A stretch of DNA of 64,000 bases from an uncultured Anaerolineaceae bacterium (GCA_964549865.1 CAZJYB010000002.1:512-64511), one strand, 5' to 3'; shown: positions 2,370 to 59,965, numbered from the stretch's first letter. Notes: generated by a model from the letters alone, not told the origin. Program-made: numbers and translations.

Positions 2370-5014
<2,645 letters not shown>

Positions 5015-5038
5015 GATTGCATCCTCCATCGGAAATCT

Positions 5039-6880
5039 ATGATTAGAAGTGCAATTTTGCAAAAACGAGAGTGGCCTGCCTGGACAGCGGACGCGGTGGC
5101 TTTATTCGGCCTCGTGGTCTTTTTTGTCCAGGCCATTACCTTCGCCCATACGACGATCTCAAATCTTGATGAGGGGGCGTATTTACTAAAGGGGATCCTG
5201 TTTGCCTCTGGAGAGTATCGTCCTTTTGACCCCGGTATCTCCACAAACAAGGGCCCTCTGGCTTTTTTGATTCCCGGATATGTTCAGCTTCTATTCGGGG
5301 CGGGACTGCGAACGGGTCGCTTTTTAGCGGTCTTTTTTGGTGTTATGGCTGTGCTTGGAACGTGGGCAGCCTCGCGGCGCCTGGGTGGAAAATGGCTTGC
5401 GGCTGGGGCGGTATGGATCCTTGCTGCCAGCCCCATGGTCATCAAGATGTATAGTGGAGGTGCCACACAGAGTACAGTCGCCTGCATGTTGGCGTGGTCC
5501 TTGGCTCTTTCTCTGGGTGAGAAGCGTGCGCCCTGGCAATTGGCATTGAGTGGTATTCTCGCAGGGCTTATGATGCTGGTGCGCCAGAATATGATGCCGG
5601 TTCTTCCGCTCCTGGCAATTTATGCTTTTTGGCAACATGGGTGGAAGGCGACCTGGTTATTATTATCCGGCATGTTAACGGTTGCGATCCCTTTTTTTAT
5701 TTATTGGCCGGATATCCTTCAGTTGTGGACGTGGCTGCCCTGGATAAGGTTTCCATCAGAGGTGCATTATAGTGGGGGTGGCACACCCATTTGGACACCC
5801 GACATTGACCTGGGTTCTCGTTTGCTTTCGATTTTCCAGGCCTTTCGGATTCATTTTGCTGCCCTGGCCGGGAGCATTGTTTGTCTATTTTTATGGCCGC
5901 GCACGAGTGGTTGGAAATCGCGTGCTGATTATCGTAGCGGGCTATTCCTGCTTGTTTTGTTTGCAGGTTTGGTTTATATGCATTCGATGGCCTCGATTGC
6001 CAGAGATTTTTGCGTTTATTGTTTCGCACCGTACATTGCATTTTTCAACATTGCCGGTATTTTGTTGCTGATTCTGATCGCCGGGTCATGGAACTGGCGA
6101 CCCTCGATCCTGACAAATATCGTAATTGTTGCTTTTTTTCTTCTCCTTTTTATAGGCATGGGTTACTCAGCTTTTGAAGATATCGGTTCCCGGGTTTTGA
6201 ACCTGCCTGCCCCGCGCATGCGCGATCTGACCGTCCTGCCAGGCTTTGTCACCTGGCGGGAAATCCTGTCAAACCGCTTTCAGCTTGATTACAATGCAGC
6301 GAAAAAATATGCATCGGCGATGTTTGGATTGATCATCGGCGGAGTTGTATCTTTGCTGGTTTATGGTTTATGGCGTCGCGTATGGCGAAGTTCAGGCACG
6401 TTGGGTTTTGGTGCGATTTATGCATCGACAATCCTTGTTTTAGGCGTTATCCTGTCTCCAATTCTCAGTGGAAGCCTTGGATATCGTGATTGCAGGATGG
6501 ATGTTATTTCAGCCAATGAACAAATTGGCGTACATTTAAGAGGCATCATTCCCGAGGGCAGCGTGGTCTACTGGAATGGCGGCCTGTCTACCGCACCCCT
6601 TCTGTACCTGCCGGGCGTTGAAATATTTCCCGCGCAGATCAATAATGGATACTCTTTTCTCAGTCATGGTGATCGCGCTGAATTATTCAAATTTGGTTTC
6701 TGGAATGAGGAAATGGATGCTGAATGGAAAGCAACCGCTGATTTTTTCATCCTCGAAGAAAAGCGATATCCCGAGTGGAAAGAGTTCCTGAACCCCGAAC
6801 AATTTGATGAATATGAGCGTACGCCTGTGGGTACATCCTGCCAGGAAGAAACTCATCTGCGTATTTTCCGAAGGAAATAA
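5039..6880 (+). CDS. GT-C fold membrane glycosyltransferase (GT39/GT83, ArnT/PMT-like)
   Basis: It is a 613-aa protein with more than 10 TM helices. An acidic first-loop motif (SNLDEGAYLLKG) follows TM1, and there is a C-terminal soluble domain. Confidence 0.55.
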   Translation: MIRSAILQKREWPAWTADAVALFGLVVFFVQAITFAHTTISNLDEGAYLLKGILFASGEYRPFDPGISTNKGPLAFLIPGYVQLLFGAGLRTGRFLAVFFGVMAVLGTWAASRRLGGKWLAAGAVWILAASPMVIKMYSGGATQSTVACMLAWSLALSLGEKRAPWQLALSGILAGLMMLVRQNMMPVLPLLAIYAFWQHGWKATWLLLSGMLTVAIPFFIYWPDILQLWTWLPWIRFPSEVHYSGGGTPIWTPDIDLGSRLLSIFQAFRIHFAALAGSIVCLFLWPRTSGWKSRADYRSGLFLLVLFAGLVYMHSMASIARDFCVYCFAPYIAFFNIAGILLLILIAGSWNWRPSILTNIVIVAFFLLLFIGMGYSAFEDIGSRVLNLPAPRMRDLTVLPGFVTWREILSNRFQLDYNAAKKYASAMFGLIIGGVVSLLVYGLWRRVWRSSGTLGFGAIYASTILVLGVILSPILSGSLGYRDCRMDVISANEQIGVHLRGIIPEGSVVYWNGGLSTAPLLYLPGVEIFPAQINNGYSFLSHGDRAELFKFGFWNEEMDAEWKATADFFILEEKRYPEWKEFLNPEQFDEYERTPVGTSCQEETHLRIFRRK

Positions 6881-7842
6881 TGAACCTGTCTTTAGTGATC
6901 CCTGTATTCAACGAGCAAGAGAACCTGCCTCTGTTGTTCCAAGCCATCTACAAAACCATGAATGAACTCAATCGTTCATGGGAGGTGCTGCTGGTGGACG
7001 ATGGCAGCCGTGACGGCAGTTTGTCTGTGCTCAGCGAATACGCCGAAAAAGATCCCCAGCATGTACGCGTCATATCCTTTCGGCGCAATTTTGGCCAAAC
7101 CGCTGCGCTTGCAGCCGGGATCGATCATGCGCTCGGCGATATCATCGTGTTGCTCGATTCTGACATGCAAAACGACCCTGCCGATATTCCGATCATGCTT
7201 GCGAAACTTGACGAGGGCTATGACCTGGTCAGCGGCTGGCGCAAGGTTCGCCAGGATAATGCCATCACCCGCAACCTGCCTTCCGGTATTGCAAACCGGC
7301 TGATCTCTCTCGTTACAGGTGTTCATTTGCATGATTATGGTTGTACGCTGAAGGCCTATCGCCGCGGCGCGCTCGAGGGATTCCGTCTTTATGGTGAAAT
7401 GCATCGCTTCATCCCCGTTTTCGCAAACTCGGTCGGCGCGCGTATCACAGAGATCCCCGTCCGCCACTACCCGCGCAAGTTTGGAAAGACCAAGTACGGG
7501 CTGGAGCGAACCGCGAAGGTCGTCCTGGATCTGTTTACCGTAAAATTCCTGGTCAGTTATTCTTCAAAACCGATCTATCTCTTTGGCGGCACTGGTGGGT
7601 TGTTGATGATCGTCAGCGCCATTTTTATGACCTATCTGTTCATCCGCCGTCTTTTCTTCGATGTAAGTATTGCGGGTTCGCCGCTCTTTCAAATGAGCGC
7701 CATGTTTTTCATCCTTGGTTTTCAATCCATTCTGATGGGCTTGATCGCTGAATTGCTCGTGCGAACTTATCATGAATCCCAGCGCAAGCGCACCTATATC
7801 ATCGGCACCATGATCAATTTGGAAAAAGATCCTCGCGACTAA
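6880..7842 (+). CDS. GT2 polyprenyl-phosphate sugar synthase (DPM1/ArnC/GtrB-like)
   Basis: Motifs seen are VIPVFNE, LVDDGSRDGS, DSDMQND, GWRKVRQD and YGCTLKAYRR, plus two C-terminal TM helices. Its start overlaps the upstream stop (TAATG). Confidence 0.85.
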   Translation: MNLSLVIPVFNEQENLPLLFQAIYKTMNELNRSWEVLLVDDGSRDGSLSVLSEYAEKDPQHVRVISFRRNFGQTAALAAGIDHALGDIIVLLDSDMQNDPADIPIMLAKLDEGYDLVSGWRKVRQDNAITRNLPSGIANRLISLVTGVHLHDYGCTLKAYRRGALEGFRLYGEMHRFIPVFANSVGARITEIPVRHYPRKFGKTKYGLERTAKVVLDLFTVKFLVSYSSKPIYLFGGTGGLLMIVSAIFMTYLFIRRLFFDVSIAGSPLFQMSAMFFILGFQSILMGLIAELLVRTYHESQRKRTYIIGTMINLEKDPRD

Positions 7843-7850
7843 GTGTCGGT

Positions 7851-8984
7851 ATGCGAATCCTTGTCATCAGCTACGAATTCCCGCCCGTCGGCGGTGGCGG
7901 AGGCCGGGCTGCCCGCGATATTTGCAGGAAGCTTGCATCGAACGGACACGAAGTCACCGTGCTTAGCGCGCATATGCACGGCCTTCCTTTCGATGAAACG
8001 CGCGATGGGATCCGCCTGGTGCGGATTCGGTCTCTCCGAAGAGAATCGTTTCGAGCCAGCTTCGTTGCCATGCTTGCCTACGTTCTCGCGGGACTTTGGG
8101 CCGGTCTGCGATTAATTCATCTATCGCGACCCGAAATCATTCATACTCATTTTGCCGTGCCGTCCGGCGCGCTTGCCTGGATGCTTTCCGTCATAACCGG
8201 CATACCCTATGTATTAACGGCTCATCTTGGCGATGTGCCCGGCGGTGTTCCTGAAAAGACAGGCACGTGGTTCCGTTGGATCAAACCATTCACAGTTCCC
8301 ATTTGGAAACGTGCAAAACACGTTGTTGCTGTAAGCGAGCATACGCGTCAGCTGGCTTTGCGACATTATCCCGTTGAAATATCCGTCATCCCAAACGGTG
8401 CGGATATAAAACTTCTTGCTCCTGCTGAAATAAAACTTAATCACCCGCCGCGCCTTGTTTTTGCCGGGCGTTTCGTGCCGCAGAAAAACCCGCTTGCCAT
8501 TGTGCAAGTCCTCGCACAGTTAACAGACCTGAACTGGAATTGTGCGATGCTGGGCGATGGGCCTCTGCTGAATGATGTAAAGCGCGAAATAGAAAAGAAG
8601 GGGATGAACGATCGTTTCGATCTGCCTGGTTGGGTCACCCCCGAAGAAGTACTGGACTGGTTCTCAAAAAGCGATATTCTCTTCATGCCTTCGCTGTCAG
8701 AGGGATTGCCGGTTGTGGGGGTTCAGGCTTTAGCCACGGGCCTCGCGATCGTGGCCAGCAGGATCGGCGGTTTCACGGATCTGGTGGATGAAGGAAAGAA
8801 TGGCTTCCTGATAGAAACCAGTGACCTATACAGGTTCGTGGATACTTTGCGAAACTTGTTATCTAACCCGCCATCCCTTTTTGAATGTCGTAAAGAAAGT
8901 CTACATAGATCGGCGAAATTTGATATCGTGCGAATTGCAGGGGAATATGAAGTGATTTTTCGGGAGGTGATCGAACGATCGTAG
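7851..8984 (+). CDS. Glycosyltransferase family 4
   Basis: Motifs seen are MRILVISYEFPPVGGGGG and PSLSEGLPVVGVQALATGLAIV. Confidence 0.85.
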   Translation: MRILVISYEFPPVGGGGGRAARDICRKLASNGHEVTVLSAHMHGLPFDETRDGIRLVRIRSLRRESFRASFVAMLAYVLAGLWAGLRLIHLSRPEIIHTHFAVPSGALAWMLSVITGIPYVLTAHLGDVPGGVPEKTGTWFRWIKPFTVPIWKRAKHVVAVSEHTRQLALRHYPVEISVIPNGADIKLLAPAEIKLNHPPRLVFAGRFVPQKNPLAIVQVLAQLTDLNWNCAMLGDGPLLNDVKREIEKKGMNDRFDLPGWVTPEEVLDWFSKSDILFMPSLSEGLPVVGVQALATGLAIVASRIGGFTDLVDEGKNGFLIETSDLYRFVDTLRNLLSNPPSLFECRKESLHRSAKFDIVRIAGEYEVIFREVIERS

Positions 8985-9250
8985 CCGGGGGAGATCCTTT
9001 ATATGAGCAGGCTGTTTTTTACACCGATCGGCCCGGGCTCCGCGAGAAAAACGTCCGCAGGCGTTGTCCTGAGCCTGTCGAAGGGTTTATTCTGCAAACC
9101 GGCTTGTTTCCAGGCAGCCTGCCTTCTTCGCCTCTACACCCTTCGGGTGCGCACGCGGCGAGATGCTCACCTGCACTGCAAAGTACGCAGTGCGGCGCAA
9201 GTGTCGCGAGAGACCTTTGGCGGTACAGTGTCTAACATCACTTATTTCAC

Positions 9251-9296
9251 TTGACAGTAAGCTTTTTATGTGCGAGAATTCAGAAAATGAATTCTC
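9251..9296 (+). promoter_or_regulatory. Type-A promoter/operator module: TTGACAG-N13-TGCGAGAATTCAGAAAATGAATTCTC
   Basis: It has a -35 TTGACA, a 17-nt spacer and a -10 GAGAAT. A perfect 8-bp inverted repeat GAGAATTC-N7-GAATTCTC overlaps the -10, the predicted TSS and ATG 9287. The same arrangement recurs at 12394-12439. Confidence 0.6.
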
Positions 9297-9769
9297 AACC
9301 GAAAACTGACGTGAAACAGCACGAATATGAACTTTTGAATGAAATTGCCCAGGATTCCCTGGTTACGCAGGCGAGCCTGTCTGATCGCTTGGGCATTGCT
9401 GTGGGCAGTGTTAATTGGTATATCAAACGCCTGATCACTCGCGGTTGGTTGAAGGTCTCACATCTGGATCGTACCCGCTTGAAATATGACCTTACCCCGG
9501 AAGGCATGACTGTTTTTACGCAGCGTGCCCTGCTTTATGCGCGCGATTCTTTGAAAGTGTACGGCGATTACCGTGAAAAAGCCAAAACATTAGTGGCGGA
9601 ATTAAAACAAAACGGGATCAAAGAAGTGTATCTTAAGGGTGATGATGAAACCATCGATATTTTGCGCCTTACTTGTATTGAGGCCGAAATTCATATAAAC
9701 AATAAACCAAATGGCTGCGTGATTGAAGCAGATGGAAAGGGATATCGAAAGGTATCCCAAAGGAATTAA
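9287..9769 (+). CDS. Winged-helix (MarR-like) transcriptional regulator, paralog 1
   Basis: It has an HTH segment (TQASLSDRLGIAVGSVNWYIKRLITRGWL) and is paralogous to 54383-54853. ATG 9287 lies about 7 nt after the -10, so the mRNA is probably leaderless. Confidence 0.7.
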   Translation: MNSQPKTDVKQHEYELLNEIAQDSLVTQASLSDRLGIAVGSVNWYIKRLITRGWLKVSHLDRTRLKYDLTPEGMTVFTQRALLYARDSLKVYGDYREKAKTLVAELKQNGIKEVYLKGDDETIDILRLTCIEAEIHINNKPNGCVIEADGKGYRKVSQRN

Positions 9770-10711
9770 ATGACGAAAAATTTTGCTGTGATTGGCGTTG
9801 GAGGTTATATTGCTCCTCGCCATTTACGGGCCATTCGTGATACAGGCAATCAACTGCTCGCCGCAGTAGACCCCAGAGATTCTGTGGGTGTGCTTGACCA
9901 ATATTCTTTCGACGTCAAATTTTTTACCGAGATTGAACGTTTTGACCGCCATCTTGAAAAATTAAGGCGCGGTCCTGAAGAAGGCCGTGTCGATTATGTG
10001 TCGATTTGCTCTCCCAATTATCTGCATGATTCACATTGCCGCCTTGCATTGCGTGTTGGCGCGGATGTGATCTGCGAAAAGCCACTTGTGATCAACCCAT
10101 GGAATTTTGACGCGCTGGAAGAATTGGAGGCAGAGACCAAACATCGCATCCATACGATCTTACAGCTGCGTGTTCACCCGGAGTTGATCAAGCTGAAAGA
10201 GTCTTTGCAAAAAGGGGGCAGTCAGCATGATGTGGAACTTGCCTATGTCACCAGCCGTGGCCCGTGGTATCAAGTCTCATGGAAGGGACAAGACGATAAG
10301 TCCGGCGGTGTGGCTACAAATATTGGCGTGCATTTCTTCGATCTTTTGTTATGGCTTTTTGGTTCTGTAAATGGGATCAAGGTGTATCACTCTGACGAAT
10401 GTCGCATGTCTGGGTTCATTGAGCTGGAACATGCGCGCGTGCGCTGGTTCCTTTCAGTGGATTCAAATGACCTGCCTTTTCCTGCAAAGGTTGGCGGCAA
10501 GACAACGTACCGATCGATCACGGTGGATGGGAAGGAAATTGAATTTTCTGAAGGATTTACAGATTTACATACACGTGTATATGAAGAAACACTCGCAGGT
10601 CGAGGTTTTGGCATAGCAGATGCGCGTCCATCGATTGACCTGACTTATGCGATTCGCACGGCTGAAATCATGCCAAAAGATGAATTGGCTCACCCATTTT
10701 TGAAAAAATAA
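9770..10711 (+). CDS. Gfo/Idh/MocA oxidoreductase, WbpB/WlbA-like (UDP-2-acetamido-sugar 3-dehydrogenase)
   Basis: Motifs seen are [18 protein letters not shown] and [14 protein letters not shown]. It lies next to the matching acetyltransferase and aminotransferase. Confidence 0.75.
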
Positions 10712-10715
10712 GATC

Positions 10716-11300
10716 ATGACGTCTGATCATTTTGTTCACGAATCCAGTTATGTGGATGAGGGTGCCGAGATCGGCAAAGGTACAAGGATATGGCATTTTT
10801 GCCACATCATGCCACGCGCACTCATTGGCGAAGGATGCAATATCGGTCAGAATGTCCTTGTCTCTTCTGGTGTGACGATCGGGAATAATGTGAAGATCCA
10901 GAACAACGTTTCACTTTACACGGGCGTGACCGTTGAAGACGATGTCTTTCTCGGCCCTTCAATGGTATTTACCAATGTGATCAATCCGCGTAGCCATGTG
11001 AGTCGCAAGGAAGAGTATAAGACTACTCTGGTCCGCAGGGGTTCTTCTATTGGGGCGAATGCCACGATTGTTTGCGGCATCACTCTTGGAAAATACTCCT
11101 TTGTAGGCGCAGGCTCTGTTGTTACCCGGGATGTCCCAGATTATGCGCTTGTGTATGGCTCGCCTGCACGGCTGTACGGCTGGGTGTGTCAGTGCGGCGA
11201 ACAATTGACGTTCACTGAACAAGATCGAGCCGTCTGTAAGAGTTGTGGCGATGCCTATCGAAAACAGGATCAGGTTGTCAGTCCTGAAGGAGCCGTTTGA
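10716..11300 (+). CDS. Left-handed beta-helix N-acetyltransferase, WbpD/WlbB-like
   Basis: It has hexapeptide repeats ([24 protein letters not shown]) and a C-terminal Cys-rich tail (CQCG..CKSCG). Confidence 0.75.
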
Positions 11301-12397
11301 TGATCCCTCTTGTAGATCTTACTGCACAGTATCATTCCATCAAGAAGGAAATTGACGAGGCTGTGCTGTCCACATTGGAGTCGGGTCATTTTATTTTAGG
11401 ACCTGCGGTCAGTAAATTCGAGGAGAGCATCGCCTCGTATCTTGGTGTGGACTTGGCGATTGGCTTGGCATCCGGAACAGATGCCCTGGTCCTGGCATTG
11501 CGTGCACTGGATATCGGGCCGGGCGACGAGGTGATCATTCCTGCTTATACATTTTTTGCGACGGTAGGCACCGTGATGTCTGTTGGCGCAAAACCAGTGT
11601 TTGTGGATATTGACCCGCAAAGTTATCAGATCGATGTAGGGCAGATAAGGGCCGGTATCACTGTCAATACGAAGGCGATCATCCCAGTGCATCTATATGG
11701 TCATCCTTCTGAAATGAATCCCATCATGGCGATTGCGCGTGAGCACGGTTTGAAAGTGATCGAGGATAATGCACAGGGGTTTGGTGCCGAATATGATGGA
11801 AGGAAGACCGGTTCTTTTGGTGATATCGGGTGTCTTAGCTTCTTCCCCACGAAAAATCTTGGAGCTTATGGGGACGCCGGCATGGTGGTGACGAACGACC
11901 CCGCGCTTGCAGAACGGATGCGTATGTTACGCACGCATGGCTGGAAGAAAAAATATTATTCAGAGGAAGTTGGCTATAACAGCCGGCTGGATGCCCTGCA
12001 GGCCGCGATCTTGCAGGTGAAACTGCCTTACCTGGATTCGTGGAATGAAAAGCGCCGCGAGCTTGCGGATCTTTACACCGACTGTTTTTCATCTTTGGGC
12101 GTCGGTGTGCCTGTTGAGCGTACATGGGCGAAGCATGTTTATCATTTATATATCATTCGGTCTTCACGGCGCGACGAGTTACAGGCATTTTTGAAGCAGA
12201 AGAATATTGCTTCTGAAGTCTACTATCCTTTACCACCGCATCTATCTGTGCCTTGCAGGAAACTTGGTTACAAAGAGGGCGATTTTCCGCATGCTGAACG
12301 GGCTGCACGAGAGACCCTAGCTCTTCCGCTCTACCCTGAGTTGATAGAGCAGCAGCAGGAAGAGGTGATTGCCTCATTAACCAAGTTTGTGGGTTGA
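11297..12397 (+). CDS. DegT/DnrJ/EryC1 PLP-dependent sugar aminotransferase, WbpE/WlbC-like
   Basis: Motifs seen are [19 protein letters not shown] and [15 protein letters not shown] (the PLP lysine region). Its start overlaps the upstream stop. Confidence 0.85.
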
Positions 12398-12439
12398 CAG
12401 GAAATTGCTTCCATGCGAGAATTCAGAAAATGAATTCTC
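12394..12439 (+). promoter_or_regulatory. Type-A promoter/operator module, copy 2, upstream of wzm/wzt set 1
   Basis: It has the same TTGACAG, the same 13-nt spacing and the same 26-nt TGCGAGAATTCAGAAAATGAATTCTC as 9251-9296. Confidence 0.6.
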
Positions 12440-12451
12440 GATCTTGTTGTT

Positions 12452-13324
12452 GTGAAGGATGTTATGGAAATACAATCGTCTGATCAAGAAAATTGGTCTC
12501 TCGTAATTCGCCCGCAACGCGCCTGGTGGGATTTACGTGTGGGTGAATTGTGGCGGTATCGGGACCTGATCTGGTTATTTGTATGGCGTGATTTTGTTGC
12601 TTATTACAAACAGACCATTCTCGGCCCGCTGTGGTACATCATCCAACCAGTGCTGACGACTGTTGTATTTACGATTATCTTCGGAAATATTGCCAAACTT
12701 TCCACCGATGGGTTGCCTCCCTTTTTGTTTTATATGGCCGGAAATATCGTTTGGAGTTATTTTAGCACCTGCCTAGTTACCACGTCTAATACATTCACAG
12801 CTAATGCTGGGATATTTGGAAAGGTATATTTTCCGCGCTTGAGTATGCCTGTTTCTGTGGTGATCTCCAATTTGATCTCGTTTTTCATCCGTCTTGCTAT
12901 ATTTTTGCTCTTCATAGGTTACTTTATATTGACAGGTGCAGACTTTCATCTCACTTGGTGGATTTTAAGCCTGCCACTTCTGGTGGTTATCATGGCCATG
13001 ATGGGGCTCGGGTTCGGTATGATCATTTCCTCGCTTACAACCAAATATCGTGATCTCCAGCAATTGGTGAGCTTCGGTGTTCAACTCCTGATGTATGCCA
13101 CGCCGGTGATTTATCCGCTTTCAAGTATCGAAGGTAGCTGGCGCTGGCTGATTCTGGCAAACCCGATGACTCCCATTGTGGAGGTCTTTCGCTTGGCCTT
13201 TTTTGGGGTAAGCGCGATCGACCCTGTTTCTTTGCTTTATAGCGCCATTTTTACAGTGGTTGTTTTTTTGGCAGGTGCATTGATCTTCAATCACGTTGAA
13301 ACCACCTTTATGGATACGGTTTAA
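12452..13324 (+). CDS. wzm: ABC-2 type polysaccharide exporter permease
   Basis: It has YKQTILGPLWYIIQP and six TM helices, and sits adjacent to the ATPase. The start (GTG 12452 or ATG 12464) is uncertain. Confidence 0.88.
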   Translation: MKDVMEIQSSDQENWSLVIRPQRAWWDLRVGELWRYRDLIWLFVWRDFVAYYKQTILGPLWYIIQPVLTTVVFTIIFGNIAKLSTDGLPPFLFYMAGNIVWSYFSTCLVTTSNTFTANAGIFGKVYFPRLSMPVSVVISNLISFFIRLAIFLLFIGYFILTGADFHLTWWILSLPLLVVIMAMMGLGFGMIISSLTTKYRDLQQLVSFGVQLLMYATPVIYPLSSIEGSWRWLILANPMTPIVEVFRLAFFGVSAIDPVSLLYSAIFTVVVFLAGALIFNHVETTFMDTV

Positions 13325-13328
13325 TAAG

Positions 13329-14636
13329 ATGTCGAACACGGTTATTTCAATTGAAAATGTTTCCAAAAGTTACCAACTGGGTGTGATCGGTACCGGCACT
13401 TTTTACGGTGATTTAAAACGATGGTGGGCAAAACAGCGCGGTCGGCCCGATCCTTATCAGAAAATTGGAGGAGCAGATCACGGCAGTCGTGATGGCGAAA
13501 CGATCTGGGCGCTTAAGGATGTTAATTTTCAGATTCAAGAGGGACAGGCCGTTGGCATCATAGGACGCAATGGAGCAGGTAAAAGTACCTTGCTCAAGAT
13601 CCTTTCAAGAGTAACTGCTCCTACTACAGGTGAAATAAAGGTGAATGGCAGGATCGCCAGCTTATTGGAAGTAGGTACAGGTTTTCACTCAGAACTGACA
13701 GGGCGTGAAAATATTTTTTTGAATGGTGCCATCATGGGGATGGATCGTAATGAGATTCAACGCAAACTGGATGAAATTGTGGATTTTTCAGGGGTGGAAC
13801 AGTTTATTGATACTCCAGTAAAACGCTACTCAAGTGGTATGTATGTACGCCTGGCCTTTGCTGTTGCAGCACATCTCGAGCCAGAGATCCTGATCGTGGA
13901 TGAGGTGTTGGCAGTGGGGGATTCTAACTTTCAGAGGAAGTGTTTAGGAAAAATGAGTGATGTGGCCGAAGGAGGGCGTACAGTTCTCTTTGTTAGTCAT
14001 AATATGTCGGCAATTAATCGTCTCTGTTCACGTGCGGTTTTGTTAAATGCGGGAACAGTAATGGAGGACGGTTCGGCTCTTGAAGTTACTGCCAAATATC
14101 TATCAGGCGCAGGTGAAGAGAGTGGTATACGAATTTGGAATATGGAAGATGCCCCAGGCACTGATGACCTAAGACTTATTTCTGCCAAACTTTTGGGAAC
14201 GGATGGCAAACCTGTCTCAGTTGTCGATGTCCGTGATCAGCTTACTTTACGAATTGAATACTATGTGAACAAACCAGGTTTACGATTCCGCTGTACTTTT
14301 AATATTCATACACAGGGAATTTTGGCGTTTGCTGTCATGGAATCCACCGAGGAGGCGCGTTCTAAGGCGGGCACTTACTATTCTAGTGTGGTTATCCCCC
14401 CACACTTGTTGGCAGAGAGCGAGTATATTGTCGGGGTCTCCATCTTCTCATCTTCAGGCGGCAAGACACGTTTTGTAGCATTGAGGGACGTGATTGGGTT
14501 CCAAGTTTATGACTCAATGATAGGACCATCAGCGCGTGGTGATTATGCCCAAAACTTTGCTGGTATTGTTCGCCCTCTTCTTAACTGGGAAAGTGGCATG
14601 TTGAATGCAGGCTCTCCATCTATTATTGATAATTAA
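13329..14636 (+). CDS. wzt: ABC polysaccharide exporter ATPase with a C-terminal glycan-terminus-binding-type domain
   Basis: It has Walker A (GRNGAGKST), the signature YSSGM and Walker B (ILIVDE). An extra C-terminal domain of about 170 aa is arranged as in Wzt of O8/O9a-type systems. Confidence 0.88.
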   Translation: MSNTVISIENVSKSYQLGVIGTGTFYGDLKRWWAKQRGRPDPYQKIGGADHGSRDGETIWALKDVNFQIQEGQAVGIIGRNGAGKSTLLKILSRVTAPTTGEIKVNGRIASLLEVGTGFHSELTGRENIFLNGAIMGMDRNEIQRKLDEIVDFSGVEQFIDTPVKRYSSGMYVRLAFAVAAHLEPEILIVDEVLAVGDSNFQRKCLGKMSDVAEGGRTVLFVSHNMSAINRLCSRAVLLNAGTVMEDGSALEVTAKYLSGAGEESGIRIWNMEDAPGTDDLRLISAKLLGTDGKPVSVVDVRDQLTLRIEYYVNKPGLRFRCTFNIHTQGILAFAVMESTEEARSKAGTYYSSVVIPPHLLAESEYIVGVSIFSSSGGKTRFVALRDVIGFQVYDSMIGPSARGDYAQNFAGIVRPLLNWESGMLNAGSPSIIDN

Positions 14637-54324: not shown

Positions 54325-54373
54325 TTGACCTTGCCTCGAATGGGGTTATAATTCAGTGACTGAATTTTGGATT
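54325..54373 (+). promoter_or_regulatory. Type-B promoter/operator: TTGACC-N16-TATAATTCAGTGACTGAATTTTGGATT
   Basis: It has near-consensus -35 and -10 hexamers. The palindrome AATTCAG-N3-CTGAATT starts inside the -10. The module is duplicated at 4015-4041. Confidence 0.6.
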
Positions 54374-54382
54374 GTAAAGTAT

Positions 54383-54853
54383 ATGGAATCAACCAACGAC
54401 GAGATCCGCGAACTCTCCCTGCTTGAACAGATCGAGAACGACCCGAATGTCAACCAGTCCACGCTTGCCACCCAACTGGGTGTTGCGGTTGGAACGGTCA
54501 ATTGGCATTTAAAACGTCTCATTGCCAAAGGCGCTGTAAAGGTTTCGCGCGCTGAGCGCAAGAAATTGCGTTACATCATCACGCCCGAGGGACTTGCCCT
54601 GCGTGCCCGTCTGGCAATCGATTACGTGGAACGTTCATTCTCTGTATATCGACGAACACGCCAGCGCGTGAAGGATCATGTTTCTTCGATTCGCCGCGCA
54701 GGATACGATCGTGTGCGCATCGTTGGCTCCGGCGATGTGGCTGATATTTGCAAACTGACATGTCTTGAACAGGGTATTTCCGTGGTGAACGATAAATCTG
54801 CGCCCGCATTAATTTTGGATGGCTACAAAGTACGGCTGGAGGGTTTGGAATGA
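54383..54853 (+). CDS. Winged-helix (MarR-like) transcriptional regulator, paralog 2
   Basis: NQSTLATQLGVAVGTVNWHLKRLIAKGAVKVSRAERKKLRYIITPEG is colinear with the regulator at 9287. I preferred ATG 54383 to GTG 54356, which lies inside the operator. Confidence 0.7.
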   Translation: MESTNDEIRELSLLEQIENDPNVNQSTLATQLGVAVGTVNWHLKRLIAKGAVKVSRAERKKLRYIITPEGLALRARLAIDYVERSFSVYRRTRQRVKDHVSSIRRAGYDRVRIVGSGDVADICKLTCLEQGISVVNDKSAPALILDGYKVRLEGLE

Positions 54854-55860
54854 CCGATCGCCATGTGCTCATTACGGGAGGCGCAGGATATATCGGTTCC
54901 ATCCTGACCTCGGAACTGCTGCGCGCCAATTACAGGGTTACCGTCCTGGACTCTTTACTGTTCGGCGGCGAAGCGATCGTTCCGTTTTTGCATCACCCCA
55001 ACTTTCACTTTGTGAAAGCGGATGTGACTGAAAATCGCGCAGTGCGTGACTCGATCAAGCGCGATTGGCAGAAACCTGACTCAGTTGTTCATCTTGCCGC
55101 GATTGTGGGTTTTCCTGCATGTCAGGCGGTGGGCAGGCAGGTGTCGTGGAAATACAATGTCGACGCCACGAAAATGGTTTTCGAACAAGCATTGGATCTG
55201 GGCATCGCGCGATTCGTTTTTGCATCCACTTATAGCAACTATGGGCTGTCGCCGGATGGCAAACCTGTGACGGAAGAATCTGCATTAAATCCGCAATCCC
55301 TGTATGCCGAGACCAAGATCGCGGCGGAGGAGTTCTTGAGCTCACAAAAGGACTCGGTCTGCGCGCCGTTGCTGTTCCGTTTTGCGACCCTGTATGGAAT
55401 TTCCCCGCGTACCCGTTTTGACCTGATCGTCAATCAATTTGTGTTGGAGGCATTCACCAAACGCGAATTGATCATTTACCAGCGCGGCTATTCACGTTCA
55501 TTCGTACATATTCGTGACGTGGTACGCGGCGTGATGATGGGTCTCGAAGCCGAACGCGAAAAGGTGTGCGGGCAGATTTTCAATCTGGGAACTGAGAACG
55601 GAAATTATTCGAAGGACGATATCGTGCAATTGGTGCTTAAACGCATGCCGGAGACAGTCGTTGAATACAAGGATCTGACTTTCGGGGGCGATATGCGCGA
55701 TATTACGGTTTCGTTCGAGAAAATCAAGCGTGTACTTGGTTTTGATGCGACCCTGACCGTGGATGACGGCGTGCGCGAGGTTTTACACGCCTTAAAGACG
55801 GGTTTGATAAGAAACCCAACGGATGACAGATACAGGAATGCACAATTCATCGTGCAATAG
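54850..55860 (+). CDS. NAD-dependent NDP-sugar epimerase/dehydratase (SDR)
   Basis: Motifs seen are VLITGGAGYIGS and YAETKIAAEE. Confidence 0.7.
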   Translation: MTDRHVLITGGAGYIGSILTSELLRANYRVTVLDSLLFGGEAIVPFLHHPNFHFVKADVTENRAVRDSIKRDWQKPDSVVHLAAIVGFPACQAVGRQVSWKYNVDATKMVFEQALDLGIARFVFASTYSNYGLSPDGKPVTEESALNPQSLYAETKIAAEEFLSSQKDSVCAPLLFRFATLYGISPRTRFDLIVNQFVLEAFTKRELIIYQRGYSRSFVHIRDVVRGVMMGLEAEREKVCGQIFNLGTENGNYSKDDIVQLVLKRMPETVVEYKDLTFGGDMRDITVSFEKIKRVLGFDATLTVDDGVREVLHALKTGLIRNPTDDRYRNAQFIVQ

Positions 55861-55875
55861 GTTGCAAGTTACCGA

Positions 55876-55890
55876 GTTGAAGGTTGAAGG
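55876..55890 (+). repeat. Left arm of the inverted repeat bracketing four-helix-bundle gene 1
   Basis: GTTGAAGGTTGAA is the exact complement of 56343-56355. Confidence 0.6.
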
Positions 55891-55899
55891 AGTATATGA

Positions 55900-56313
55900 A
55901 TGACGACTGCAAAGCGGTTTGAGGAATTGGAAGTTTGGCAAAGAGCCAAAGATCTGACAAACCTGGTTTATAAATTTTCCACAGATGGGTCGTTTGCGCG
56001 TGATTTCGGTTTGCGCGACCAAATCAGACGCGCGTCTGTTTCGATTATGTCCAATATAGCCGAAGGATTTGAGAGTCAAACTCAGGCTGTGTTTATTAAG
56101 TACCTCGCGTATGCCAAAGGTTCTGCGGGTGAGTTGCGGGCTCAACTTTATATTGTCAGGGATCAAGGCTACATAACTGATGAAGAATTTGATCAAGCAT
56201 TTTCCGCAGCGGAAATTTGCAGCAAGCAATTATCACGTTTTATTCATTATTTGGAATCCCAACCCAACGCGCGGCGGGTCCGCGAAGAAGAAGTAGCGTA
56301 CAATGTCGAATAG
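55900..56313 (+). CDS. Four-helix-bundle protein (23S rRNA intervening-sequence protein / Avd-like family)
   Basis: Motifs seen are [48 protein letters not shown]. Confidence 0.8.
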
Positions 56314-57316
56314 CCAACCTTCCAACTTTCAACCTTCTGACTTTCAACCTTCAACCTTTTGGCAGAACAAACGTGTGATCGTTACGGGGGGAGGAGGTTT
56401 CCTCGGCTCCTTTGTTGTTGAAGAACTTAAGCAGCGCGGCGCGACCGATATTTTCATCCCGCGCAAAAAGGATTATGACCTGACCGATCACAACGCAATT
56501 GATCGTTTCTATAATGATGCGTTGAAAGGTGTCGAGCCCGGGCATACGATCGTGATTCATCTGGCCGCCAATGTGGGCGGCATCGGCGCCAACCGTGAAC
56601 ACCCCGCTGAATTTTTCTACGATAACCTGGTGATGGGCGTGGAATTGATGCACCAGGCCTGGAAGCGCGGTGTCGGCAAATTCGTTGCCACCGGAACGGT
56701 GTGTGCGTATCCCAAATTCACCCCGGTTCCGTTCAAGGAAGATGACCTGTGGATCGGCTATCCTGAAGAGACCAATGCTCCCTATGGCCTCGCCAAAAAA
56801 ATGATGCTGGTGCAGGCGCAGTCTTATCGCCAGCAATATGGATTCAATTCCATTTTCCTTTTGCCTGTAAATCTATATGGCCCTGGCGATAATTTCAATC
56901 TGCAAACCTCGCATGTGATCCCGGCCTTGATCCGCAAGGCGGTCGAAGCGGGTGAGCGCGGTGATCAGGAACTGCAAGTGTGGGGGGATGGCTCTCCAAC
57001 CCGCGAATTCCTGTATGTGGAAGATGCTGCAGATGGCATTGTCACTGCTGCTGAAAAATATGACGGCGATCAGCCTGTCAATCTTGGTTCCGGTTATGAG
57101 ATCTCGATCAAGGATTTGAGCGAAATCATTGTGAAAATGACCGGTTTTCAGGGAAAGCTTGCATGGCAGACCGATAAACCGAACGGCCAGCCACGCCGAG
57201 GGCTGGACGTCACCCGTGCAAAGGAATTATTCAATTGGCGTGCGCGAGTTACCTTTGAAGAAGGCATGCGTCGCACGATCGAATGGTTTAAAGCCAATCG
57301 TGAAAAAATTAAATAG
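56303..57316 (+). CDS. fcl: GDP-L-fucose synthase (GDP-4-keto-6-deoxymannose 3,5-epimerase/4-reductase)
   Basis: Motifs seen are [45 protein letters not shown] and [12 protein letters not shown]. The true start may lie downstream of the repeat-encoded first ~20 codons. Confidence 0.88.
56314..56356 (+). repeat. Right arm: reiterated CAACCTT/CAACTTT heptamers, also read as the fcl N-terminal codons
   Basis: The sequence is CCAACCTTCCAACTTTCAACCTTCTGACTTTCAACCTTCAACC, and 13 nt are complementary to the left arm. Confidence 0.6.
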
Positions 57317-57319
57317 CCT

Positions 57320-57373
57320 GGATCGCGGACTTCAGTCCGCAATTCATATATAGCGGACTGAAGTCCGCGATCC
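57320..57373. repeat. Perfect 21-bp inverted repeat with a 12-nt loop (GGATCGCGGACTTCAGTCCGC-N12-GCGGACTGAAGTCCGCGATCC)
   Basis: I read it directly from the sequence. Each arm holds a nested mini-palindrome (GCGGACT-TC-AGTCCGC). It ends 7 nt before the wzm2 ATG, and a second copy lies at 61681-61731. Confidence 0.85.
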
Positions 57374-57380
57374 GAGAAAA

Positions 57381-58226
57381 ATGACTGAAATTGTAAAACA
57401 CGAACCCACCACGGTTTACATCAAGCCATCCAAAGGTCTTGCAGCATTAAACCTGCATGACCTGTGGGTTTACCGTGAATTGATCTTCTTCATGGTCTGG
57501 CGTGATATAAAAGTCAAATATAAACAAACTCTTTTGGGCATGGCCTGGGCGGTTATTCAACCGTTGATGACCATGTTGGTGTTCACCTTCCTGTTTGATC
57601 GGGTTGCAAAACTACCGACGGAAGGGATCCCTTATCCTGTTTTTTCTTTTACTGCATTGTTGCCGTGGGGCCTGTTTGTCGTGGCGCTTAATCAGGGGAG
57701 TCGCTCGCTTGTGGCGCATAACAATATGGTGACCAAGATCTACTTCCCGCGCTTGATCCTGCCCATGTCATCGGTCTTTGCCGGGCTGGTTGATTTTGCG
57801 ATCGCCTTCGTCATTCTGGTTATTCTGATGTTTTACTATCAAGTCACCCCTGCATGGAATTTACTGTGGACTCTTCCGCTGTTTCTATTATTGGCAATTA
57901 TCACCGCGCTTGGCGTGGCGCTCTGGCTTTCAGCGATCAATGTACAATATCGCGACGTAAACCAGGCCCTCCCGTTTCTGACCCAGTTCTGGCTGTTTGC
58001 CACACCTGTTGCATATTCCGCCACTGTCATCTCTGAAAAATGGCAGGTTTTATATTTTCTGAATCCGATGGCCGGAGTGGTCAATGGATTTCGCTGGTCT
58101 TTGCTCGGCATTGGCAATGGACCGGATATTACACTCTGGGTTTCAACCGGTATTTCGATATTGATTTTCATCTCTGGCCTTTTCTACTTTCGCAGCATGG
58201 AAAAGACCTTTGCGGATACTATATAA
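57381..58226 (+). CDS. wzm: ABC-2 type polysaccharide exporter permease, set 2
   Basis: It has YKQTLLGMAWAVIQP and six TM helices, and is paralogous to 12452-13324. Confidence 0.88.
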   Translation: MTEIVKHEPTTVYIKPSKGLAALNLHDLWVYRELIFFMVWRDIKVKYKQTLLGMAWAVIQPLMTMLVFTFLFDRVAKLPTEGIPYPVFSFTALLPWGLFVVALNQGSRSLVAHNNMVTKIYFPRLILPMSSVFAGLVDFAIAFVILVILMFYYQVTPAWNLLWTLPLFLLLAIITALGVALWLSAINVQYRDVNQALPFLTQFWLFATPVAYSATVISEKWQVLYFLNPMAGVVNGFRWSLLGIGNGPDITLWVSTGISILIFISGLFYFRSMEKTFADTI

Positions 58227-58227
58227 A

Positions 58228-58263
58228 GTGTCAGGTTTCAGGTGCCATGTATCAGGTCATCTG
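58228..58263 (+). repeat. Left arm of the inverted repeat bracketing four-helix-bundle gene 2 (reiterated CAGGT units)
   Basis: GTGTCAGG and TTTCAGGTG pair with CCTGACAC (58662-58669) and CACCTGAAA (58646-58654). Confidence 0.6.
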
Positions 58264-58277
58264 AAAAGTAGATTATC

Positions 58278-58640
58278 ATGGCGATGATTCAACGATTTGA
58301 AGATATTCAAGCCTGGCAGGAAGCAAGGATATTAGTGAAAATGATTTATCAATTAACAAATAAAGATAAATTTTCGAAGGACTTTGGAATGAGAGATCAG
58401 ATTAGGCGTGCCTCCGTTTCTGTGATGAACAATGTTGCAGAAGGTTTTGATTGTGAATCTAAGGCTGAGTTTGCTCGTTTTCTTGGAATTGCAAGGCGTT
58501 CGGCTGTAGAAGTCCAATCCCTTCTATATGCGGCAATGGATGTAGGTTATGTTGATCAAACTGAATTTGACTTGCATTATGAACAAGCACGTAAGGCAAA
58601 AGCCCTTATCGGCGGCTTCAAACGTTCCCTCACCAAGTAA
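58278..58640 (+). CDS. Four-helix-bundle protein (23S rRNA intervening-sequence protein / Avd-like family), second copy
   Basis: Motifs seen are [30 protein letters not shown] and FLGIARRSAVEVQSLLY. Confidence 0.8.
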   Translation: MAMIQRFEDIQAWQEARILVKMIYQLTNKDKFSKDFGMRDQIRRASVSVMNNVAEGFDCESKAEFARFLGIARRSAVEVQSLLYAAMDVGYVDQTEFDLHYEQARKAKALIGGFKRSLTK

Positions 58641-58669
58641 CCTGACACCTGAAACGTGATACCTGACAC
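58641..58669 (+). repeat. Right arm of the inverted repeat bracketing four-helix-bundle gene 2
   Basis: CCTGACACCTGAAACGTGATACCTGACAC ends 6 nt before the wzt2 ATG. Confidence 0.6.
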
Positions 58670-58675
58670 ATACTT

Positions 58676-59965
58676 ATGACAACAGCGATTTCAGTAAAAA
58701 ACATTGGCAAACAATACAAGATTGGCGCGGCTGAGTCGAAATTCCGCTACAACATGCTCCGCGATGTGATCGTGGATACCGTTTCTGCACCAATTCGTCT
58801 GGCGAAAGCGATGGTGGGAAGGTCTGACCGCAGACAGAACCAGAACTACGTCTGGGCATTGAAGGATGTTTCCTTTGATCTGGAAGAAGGGAAGGTCCTT
58901 GGCATTGTTGGGCGTAATGGCGCGGGGAAAAGTACCCTGCTCAAGATCCTTTCTCGTGTTACCGAGCCAACGGTCGGCATGGTTTCTGTACGTGGGCGTG
59001 TCGGCTCGCTCCTCGAAGTAGGTACCGGCTTTCACCCCGAACTCACTGGCCGTGAAAATATTTATATGAACGGCGCGATCCTGGGCATGAAGCGTGCTGA
59101 GATCGATTCCAAATTTGATGAGATCGTTGACTTTTCTGAGGTTACTCAATTCATTGATACACCGGTCAAGCGCTATTCATCAGGCATGTATCTGCGCCTG
59201 GCTTTCGCGGTTGCCGCGCATCTCGAACCTGAGATCCTTGTAGTTGACGAAGTGCTTGCGGTGGGCGACGCGGAATTCCAGCGCAAGTGTCTTGGCAAAA
59301 TGGGGGACGTGGCGCAGCAGGGCCGCACGGTCTTGTTCGTCAGCCATAACATGTCCGCGATCCTGAGATTAACGCAAGAAGCCATCGTCTTGAACAAGGG
59401 TCAATTGCTGATGCGCGGCCCCACCCAGGAGGCTGTCGATTTTTATCTCTCATCGGGGCAGGCACAAGCCGGGGAGCGCGCCTGGGATGTTGATGAAATC
59501 CCGGCATCCAGTGCTCCATTCAGGCCGATCAGTTTGAGGGTCAAGGACAGAAGCGGAAAGGTCGTGGATACTGTCCGCTCCACGGAGCCACTCAACGTCG
59601 AATTTGAATATCAACTGGATGCACCCATTACCGGGCTGCGCATCGGTTTTTATCTCAGCACCATGCGCGGCGAATATGTGCTGACCTCATTTGATACCGA
59701 TGAGCCGCAGATGTTCGATCAATTTGATTCACGCAAATCCGGTCGTTATGTCAGTCGTTGCGTGATCCCGGCGGATATCTTCAACGAGGGACGGTATGGC
59801 CTGGGTGTGAACGCCAGTTCGTTTGGCGTGCGTCGTTATTTCATGGATGAGAATGCTTTGGCATTCAATGTGGATATTTCGGGCGCGCCAGGTACGCAAT
59901 GGCCCGAGCCGCGTGTGGGCCCGGTACGCCCGCGCCTTGAATGGAAGATCGAGAAACTGGATTAA
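58676..59965 (+). CDS. wzt: ABC polysaccharide exporter ATPase with a divergent C-terminal binding-type domain, set 2
   Basis: It has GRNGAGKST, YSSGM and ILVVDE. The N-terminal ~250 aa are close to 13329-14636, while the C-terminal domain is much more divergent. Confidence 0.88.
   Translation: MTTAISVKNIGKQYKIGAAESKFRYNMLRDVIVDTVSAPIRLAKAMVGRSDRRQNQNYVWALKDVSFDLEEGKVLGIVGRNGAGKSTLLKILSRVTEPTVGMVSVRGRVGSLLEVGTGFHPELTGRENIYMNGAILGMKRAEIDSKFDEIVDFSEVTQFIDTPVKRYSSGMYLRLAFAVAAHLEPEILVVDEVLAVGDAEFQRKCLGKMGDVAQQGRTVLFVSHNMSAILRLTQEAIVLNKGQLLMRGPTQEAVDFYLSSGQAQAGERAWDVDEIPASSAPFRPISLRVKDRSGKVVDTVRSTEPLNVEFEYQLDAPITGLRIGFYLSTMRGEYVLTSFDTDEPQMFDQFDSRKSGRYVSRCVIPADIFNEGRYGLGVNASSFGVRRYFMDENALAFNVDISGAPGTQWPEPRVGPVRPRLEWKIEKLD

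Follow-up and report, generated by a model that had tools for sequence, protein, structure and literature searches.

The window, by which we mean the whole stretch of 64,000 nucleotides from an uncultured Anaerolineaceae bacterium that was analysed, is a long, almost one-directional cell-surface glycan locus of the Anaerolineales (Chloroflexota). A 46-bp module at positions 9251-9296 leads directly into the gene of a winged-helix regulator, which we call RegA, and a second copy of the module stands ahead of wzm. The genes and features of this part of the window are listed below, with the source of each assignment in brackets where one applies.

9251-9256, + strand: -35 hexamer TTGACA of the regA promoter (sequence reading and promoter scan)
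9271-9279, + strand: extended -10, GAGAAT (9274-9279) with TG (9271-9272) one base ahead of it (sequence reading and promoter scan)
9274-9296, no strand: predicted operator A1, the palindrome GAGAATTCA-N5-TGAATTCTC (sequence reading, shuffles and alignment of relatives)
9286-9287, + strand: predicted transcription start, seventh to eighth base past the -10 (promoter geometry)
9287-9769, + strand: regA, 160-aa winged-helix regulator, predicted start ATG in the palindrome centre (HTH_24, E 9.5e-11)
9770-10711, + strand: GFO/IDH/MocA oxidoreductase (domain profile searches)
10716-11300, + strand: hexapeptide acetyltransferase (domain profile searches)
11297-12397, + strand: DegT aminotransferase (domain profile searches)
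12394-12422, + strand: second promoter copy, TTGACA (12394-12399) and, after a 17-nt spacer, GAGAAT (12417-12422), with TG at 12414-12415
12417-12439, no strand: predicted operator A2, same sequence as A1 (sequence reading and shuffles)
12430-12483, + strand: upstream open reading frame (uORF) MNSRSCCCEGCYGNTIV, 17 codons, opened by the central ATG of A2 (sequence reading)
12464-13324, + strand: wzm, whose Shine-Dalgarno (SD) motif is GAAGGA (domain profile searches)
about 13296-14636, + strand: wzt (domain profile searches)

The oxidoreductase, acetyltransferase and aminotransferase genes (9770-12397) are likely to be co-transcribed with regA. In most related loci that carry the set these three genes are syntenic and their proteins 73-91% identical, and across 80 loci the order GT2 ... 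GT4 - RegA - (oxidoreductase) - acetyltransferase - aminotransferase - wzm - wzt is broadly preserved. In the window wzm and wzt are followed by a NeuB-like synthase. The use of SD sequences in the window is weak and patchy. Comparison with E. coli genomes gave no similarity to the window, and an Rfam search of the whole window returned nothing at the gathering score; with relaxed thresholds the only match at the two A sites was a chance hit to a viral pseudoknot (E 0.17).

The spacer ahead of the module (8985-9250) has a length of 266 nt and a GC content of 57% and is unique to this contig. It showed no structure beyond that of shuffled sequences (z -0.24), no intrinsic terminator on the + strand and no repeat within the window or the related loci. 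The sequence GGCGGTACAGTG at 9220-9231 in this spacer resembles the ops element and differs by one mismatch from GGCGGTAGnnTG, which we take to be the ops consensus. We rejected it as an ops/JUMPstart element: it is conserved in no related locus, gives no Rfam match and lies upstream of the -35, and because of its position and lack of conservation the resemblance is probably due to chance.

Anatomy of the module and its second copy

An earlier note on this DNA had described a promoter, TTGACA-N17-GAGAAT, followed by the ATG of the regulator at 9287, 7 nt past the -10 hexamer and with no room for an SD sequence before it. Reading the sequence bore out all of these points. The spacer between TTGACA and GAGAAT is 17 nt (9251-9279) and seven bases (9280-9286) separate the -10 hexamer from the A of ATG 9287-9289. 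The same note had reported a perfect inverted repeat. The repeat is real and contains the 8+N7+8 version that had been described, but its arms are longer, with 9 bp on either side of an N5 spacer and a total of 23 bp. As had also been proposed, it lies across the -10 and the predicted +1: positions 9274-9296 span about -12 to +11 around the predicted start, and the -10 hexamer GAGAAT doubles as the outer portion of the left arm of the palindrome.

The sigma-70 -35/-10 match is 10/12 at both copies of the module, and both carry the TG of an extended -10. A promoter scan of the region gave 5 matches compared to 4.7 expected and hence no enrichment as such; however, the only 10/12 matches and the only matches with a TG in that scan were the two module copies. 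We infer the transcription start from the geometry of this promoter. The standard +1, the seventh base past the -10, is 9286, one base ahead of ATG 9287, and an RNA that starts there has a 5' end without structure when folded. The predicted +1 could fall 1-3 nt ahead of the ATG, and a start at 9284-9286 would leave a leader of that length on the regA mRNA.

The 23-mer is rare. It has exactly two occurrences in the 64-kb window at up to three mismatches, compared to 0 expected from 100 shuffles, and with a position matrix built from relatives both A sites scored 37.8 bits where the best shuffle scored 3.4. At the second site (12394-12439) the similarity extends to the 26-mer TGCGAGAATTCAGAAAATGAATTCTC, which is identical at 9271-9296 and 12414-12439 and follows TTGACAG after a gap of 13 nt at both copies. 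The recurrence that the earlier note had pointed out is thus confirmed down to the spacing, though the second copy does not serve another regulator: it is placed between the DegT aminotransferase gene and wzm, where, as a predicted promoter, it would drive the wzm-wzt ABC exporter. The stop codon TGA of the aminotransferase gene (12395-12397) lies inside the TTGACA of this copy, and the combination of ..KFVG* and TTGACAG is found in the same position and context in four related loci (L004, L012, L046 and L059). The uORF at 12430-12483 is out of frame with wzm, overlaps the wzm start and ends 17 nt beyond the wzm ATG.

Conservation of the module in related loci

We compared two sets of loci. 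The first set (L001-L080) consists of 80 loci from species-representative genomes that were fetched by protein similarity alone and is thus unbiased. The second set (L081-L200) holds 120 further loci from metagenome contigs. These were found by a scan for the DNA pattern, so that conservation at fixed positions in this set is given by construction.

For the protein-fetched loci the module adjoins the regulator gene in 78 of 80 cases. In one of the remaining two it is cut off and in the other (L060) it is displaced to ∼280 nt upstream of the regulator gene. The palindrome was found within four mismatches in 76 of the 80 loci; three more have a diverged copy and one is cut off before the site. 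All of the 78 regulator-adjoining modules have TTGAC followed by A, T or G, the exact 17-nt spacer and TG at -15/-14, with a -10 hexamer of GAGAAT in 64 cases and CAGAAT in 14. The consensus of the family palindrome is GAGAATTCAG-AAA-CTGAATkCTC, with 10-bp arms, a 3-nt spacer and half-site centres 11 bp apart, and the palindrome in the window departs from it in the right arm, whose innermost base is A instead of C. When the flanks were compared among related loci we observed no conservation upstream of the -35 or downstream of the palindrome. Across the Anaerolineales the module is near-invariant, almost letter for letter, and regulator gene and box are strictly linked in the related loci. The geometry conserved across 78 loci is the decisive evidence that the module is more than a chance arrangement.

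The genome and metagenome sets together gave 203 distinct modules, 157 of them before a regulator gene and 46 before other genes. The commonest target among the latter is wzm (∼28 copies), and the remaining copies precede oxidoreductase, gmd-like, GT2 and sugar dehydrogenase genes as well as two kinds of cytidylyltransferase-like genes. Internal copies, too, keep the -35/-10 geometry exactly. A separate observation concerns locus L007, in which four tandem RegA paralogues (2466-8462; one of them partial), each with its own upstream module, alternate with fragments from the 5' end of wzm. The array looks like a tandem duplication of module-regulator units.

The position of the start codon varies among the 157 regulator-linked modules. 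In 122 of them there is no central ATG, and in 121 of these an ATG in frame follows the palindrome at 2-7 nt (once 12 nt). A central ATG in frame with the regulator occurs in 23 modules: 14 of the genes lack any other start codon, four have only a GTG or TTG as alternative and five keep both ATGs. The window belongs to the four (GTG 9311), and it is also one of the 18 genes out of 23 in which the downstream ATG has been lost. In the last 12 modules the central ATG is out of frame; 11 of these retain the downstream ATG; in the twelfth (L157) the sole alternative is a TTG behind AGGAAGG. With the exception of L117 and L157 all genes that lost the downstream ATG have a central ATG in frame. The census thus demonstrates that the loss of the usual downstream ATG accompanies the gain of an in-frame central ATG. 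On a rough neighbour-joining (NJ) tree of 210 coding bases the start-codon state changed ∼8 times, a figure good to an order of magnitude only, given so short and weakly resolved a tree.

That the central ATG can work as a start is independently supported by wzm. In at least six loci (L086, L120, L138, L183, L190 and L191) the reading frame of Wzm itself opens at the central ATG (MNAQ...W..VIRPQR), and in these cases a second gene, unrelated to the regulator, takes its start codon from the cassette along with promoter and operator. Together the comparisons support ATG 9287 as the true start of regA. For the 137 genes with a downstream ATG we searched for an SD-like tetramer at -16 to -4 and found it in none of them; their leaders would measure only ∼13-18 nt from the predicted +1. 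As SD use is weak in this genome, a missing SD proves little and is supporting evidence at most. These observations fit a clade in which translation of this regulator proceeds without an SD and, in the lineage of the window, would begin at a 5'-terminal AUG. Predictions for Chloroflexi include leaderless genes whose -10 signals are of the TAtaaT type (PMC3160421), and our literature search found no transcription-start study of the Anaerolineae.

RegA, RegB and their boxes

In Pfam RegA passes the threshold for HTH_24 (41.5 bits, E 9.5e-11). Its MarR_2 score lies below the gathering threshold (22.1 vs 27 bits), which leaves it outside PF01047 and PF12802. The best NCBIfam match is TIGR04176 (MarR_EPS) with 48.7 bits and an E-value of 6.2e-13 over residues 10-107; we rejected RegA as a member of this family since the curated cutoff is 88 bits. 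In the AF2 model (pLDDT 81) residues 11-69 form a winged helix, followed by a helix of 38 residues and a small C-terminal alpha/beta domain. The model has one long C-terminal helix, and the N-terminal dimerisation helix of MarR is not evident. The top Foldseek matches to this model are all of the MarR family (probability 1.0, TM 0.45-0.52 over ∼105 residues), and several of them are structures solved on operator DNA. A PDB search with the RegA sequence gave only marginal matches to MarR and eS25 winged helices, and an exact-protein look-up of RegA returned no record.

More than 2000 homologues of RegA were found, mostly 70-80% identical, and those with a name are from the Anaerolineales, phylum Chloroflexota. 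The recognition helix GSVNWYIKRL is invariant among the homologues, as is the operator core. The C-terminal alpha/beta domain is conserved as well (RegA 110-160, RegB 105-156, with the motif G-x-D-E..DILRLTCIEAG). When this domain was searched alone it gave nothing credible in Pfam. It also has no match in the PDB and is a candidate module for ligand sensing or dimerisation. We also noticed that some homologues (P0009, P0012, P0015, P0017, P0066 and P0111 in alignment A1) have N-terminal extensions that translate the operator (RIQKLNA, CENSETEFS). Such extensions in many of the homologue entries are likely to be start codons mis-called by gene finders.

The window holds a paralogue of RegA with a related box:

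4015-4037, no strand: B-type palindrome TATAATTCAG-CGA-CTGAATTTTG before gmd (matrix scan)
4052-5014: gmd, with the SD AGGAG, downstream of the B-type palindrome
54325-54369, + strand: paralogous module, with TTGACC, a 16-nt spacer and TATAAT at 54347-54352 (matrix scan and sequence reading)
54347-54369: B-type palindrome TATAATTCAG-TGA-CTGAATTTTG before regB (matrix scan)
54383-54853, + strand: regB, 156-aa RegA paralogue with 37% identity and the same domain layout (profile searches and alignment)

The two B-type palindromes (4015-4037 and 54347-54369) appeared as weaker sites in the scan with the A matrix and give the consensus TATAATTCAG-YGA-CTGAATTTTG. The core AATTCAG-N3-CTGAATT has four matches in the window compared to 0.07 expected. 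RegB passes PF01047 in Pfam (29.6 vs a cutoff of 24.6), and homologues with 87-95% identity occur in many Anaerolineales assemblies. A B-type box lies upstream of the RegB orthologue in all five other distinct loci that were examined (L201-L209), and in 21 related loci one stands before gmd and is followed by a clear AGGAG SD. A promoter which carries its own version of the box for each paralogue is what autoregulation predicts, and this supports the view that each regulator is paired with its own operator. RegB also heads a second glycan operon of the ABC-transporter type (54850-59965) with two epimerase/dehydratase genes, an ABC-2 permease and Wzt-like ORFs, where permease and Wzt-like ORFs were assigned by length and by synteny with L201. 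On this assignment there are two export systems in the window and a separate regulator for each.

Proposed regulation, alternatives and related systems

We propose that the 46-bp module is a sigma-70-type promoter with an extended -10, merged with a 23-bp palindromic predicted operator. Members of the MarR family are dimers which bind (pseudo)palindromes of 16-24 bp over the -10/-35 of their own or neighbouring promoters and are released by ligands, and steric repression classically acts from a site of this kind, which covers about -12 to +11 of a promoter close to consensus. From this arrangement we infer both the binding and its sign: RegA, as a dimeric MarR-like winged-helix protein, would most likely bind the palindrome and block RNA polymerase. 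It would in this way repress its own operon, that is regA and the three amino-sugar modification genes, and through the identical second copy also the wzm-wzt glycan exporter operon. The inducing signal may be a ligand of the C-terminal domain. In the lineage of the window a derived change from C to A in the right arm, at its innermost base, produced an ATG at the predicted +1/+2, and the customary start codon 15 nt further downstream was lost. With the one gained and the other gone, the regA mRNA is probably leaderless or has a leader of up to 3 nt, and it would be translated without an SD sequence. The self-regulated promoter with an operator on the -10 and +1, which the earlier note had suggested, gains support from the geometry that is invariant in 78 of 78 modules, from the recurrence before wzm and from the separate box of RegB. 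We consider it probable, judging from the sequence comparisons, that RegA represses itself as well as the wzm promoter and that the regA mRNA has a leader of 0-3 nt.

There are several other ways to read these data. A start at GTG 9311, or a slightly early transcript start, would give the regA mRNA a short leader (25 nt for the GTG) and turn the central ATG into an incidental variant of the operator, with promoter and operator as described. The GTG is in frame in the window, five relatives have both ATGs, and most of the family starts from an ATG 13-18 nt past the predicted +1 without an SD, from which it follows that SD-less initiation behind a short leader works in this clade. However, the 14 relatives with a central ATG and no alternative start of any kind speak against it, as does the in-frame central ATG in every gene that lost the downstream one apart from L117 and L157. 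GTG 9311 has no SD before it either, and its product would be three residues short of the conserved N-terminus MTEIKQHEY, so that we consider this start unlikely and keep ATG 9287. The identity and role of the protein on the palindrome also have to be weighed, as it might be bound by RegB or by an unlinked global regulator, or RegA might act as an activator or anti-repressor. Cross-binding by RegB is plausible as the two boxes have the core half-site AATTCAG in common and the recognition helices are similar. Activation of transcription by some MarR-family proteins is described in the abstract of bioRxiv 10.1101/2024.02.28.577416. In every case examined, though, the A-type box lies beside RegA and the B-type box beside RegB, and the site occupies the position of a steric repressor on a near-consensus promoter. 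We know of no activator that works from a site at -12 to +11, and find each of these variants decidedly improbable compared with repression by RegA itself. A covariation test of operator variants against protein residues returned only signals that follow the clades, the best of which pairs a change from K66 to Q in the wing with T to C at operator position 19.

Two further alternatives were weighed. The repeat could act as an RNA hairpin in read-through transcripts and terminate, attenuate or stabilise them, especially at the internal copy (12416-12440), which a terminator scan flagged with 10 pairs followed by ATCTTGTTGT and for which folding of the read-through RNA at A2 gave a hairpin of 10 bp with -13.5 kcal/mol and z = -3.2. 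As an intrinsic terminator we rejected this copy: it has only four GC pairs and a partial T run, and the T tract is unconserved in relatives. A transcript from the predicted +1 would contain the right arm only, the sequence past the palindrome is unconserved and in the family A-rich rather than T-rich, Rfam gave no match, and the internal copies keep a -35/-10 geometry that an RNA hairpin would not need, all of which makes a role at the RNA level very unlikely. Alternatively, the two copies may lack a regulatory function and be junctions left by recombination, or a mobile cassette that was duplicated. The second copy does lie where the conserved amino-sugar genes give way to the variable downstream genes, three non-consensus bases are common to both copies in the window, and the tandem module-regulator duplications with wzm fragments in L007 point in the same direction. 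Against this stands an order-wide conservation at the level of single bases which is limited to promoter and palindrome, as expected of purifying selection on a functional site. Moreover, the window contains no terminal repeats, target duplications or nearby transposase, and we give this explanation next to no weight beside a promoter that RegA would repress.

The Anaerolineales are filamentous bacteria, for the most part uncultured, that abound in sludge, sediments and soils, and to our knowledge almost nothing is known about their gene regulation. The module offers a near-invariant and easily spotted promoter-operator signature for this order and, with it, a predicted regulon for the surface-glycan loci. 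For the Chloroflexota it also argues, by comparison, that translation can be leaderless or follow a short leader without an SD, and it would correct many N-termini in the databases that wrongly translate the operator. The mechanism itself looks conventional, a self-repressing winged-helix protein with a leaderless message, and as the design is a textbook one the module extends known biology rather than changing it. We find it moderately interesting for its order-wide invariance, for the start codon inside the operator with its repeated switching and for the paired paralogous boxes. A wider interpretation, which we offer tentatively and regard as possible though doubtful, takes the module as a portable cassette of promoter, operator and start codon, and RegA and RegB with the A and B boxes as a small cross-talking circuit for two glycans across the Anaerolineales. 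If this were true, the operator centre would be the AUG of leaderless regulator and exporter mRNAs, with a start codon that has hopped several times; precursor synthesis and export of two ABC-transporter-dependent glycans would be coordinated; and the C-terminal domain, undescribed so far, would respond to an intermediate of the pathway.

The operator sequence was not found in the searchable literature, and a search on the EPS-associated MarR family gave nothing useful. A case from the same phylum is Rdh2R of Dehalococcoides, reportedly a MarR-type repressor that acts on reductive dehalogenase promoters, with a palindrome at the promoter/transcription-start region. It shares the repressor type and the phylum with RegA but belongs to the class Dehalococcoidia and has other targets, and we treat it as a lead only. 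The best structural matches to RegA (MarR, MepR, FabT, ZitR, BpsR and ST1710) have the same winged helix followed by a long helix. RegA differs from them by its MarR_2 score below the cutoff, a TM of ∼0.5 and a 50-residue alpha/beta C-terminal domain without a Pfam or PDB match. TIGR04176 likewise describes a small winged-helix regulator within an exopolysaccharide locus, although the model lacks the C-terminal domain of RegA.

Systems with comparable messages are known from other bacteria and from phage. The predicted wzm mRNA, led by an SD and with a 5'-terminal AUG that opens a short uORF, resembles the 5'-uAUG mRNAs of E. coli (PMC4965119), which were established experimentally whereas the wzm case comes from prediction. 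The mRNAs of lambda cI from PRM and of tetR of Tn1721 are classic leaderless repressor mRNAs, cited in PMC3017554. Both encode self-regulated repressors, their transcripts begin at the AUG and their operators overlap the promoter, as we propose for RegA; they differ in the fold (lambda-repressor HTH and TetR, respectively) and in the phage or transposon context. In addition cI at PRM is also positively autoregulated, unlike the repression proposed for RegA. The acuR-acuI-dddL operon of Rhodobacter sphaeroides is a further case. Its mRNA was mapped to the AUG of the regulator and has no SD, and AcuR is translated less than the downstream genes of the operon (PMC3017554). Here, too, the repressor is encoded first in the operon that it controls and an inverted-repeat operator overlaps the promoter (PMC3017554). 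AcuR is, however, a proteobacterial protein of the TetR family with an operator upstream of the ATG, whereas RegA is MarR-like, its -10 lies inside an operator arm, and its start codon, with a transcription start placed from the sequence, falls in the centre of the palindrome.
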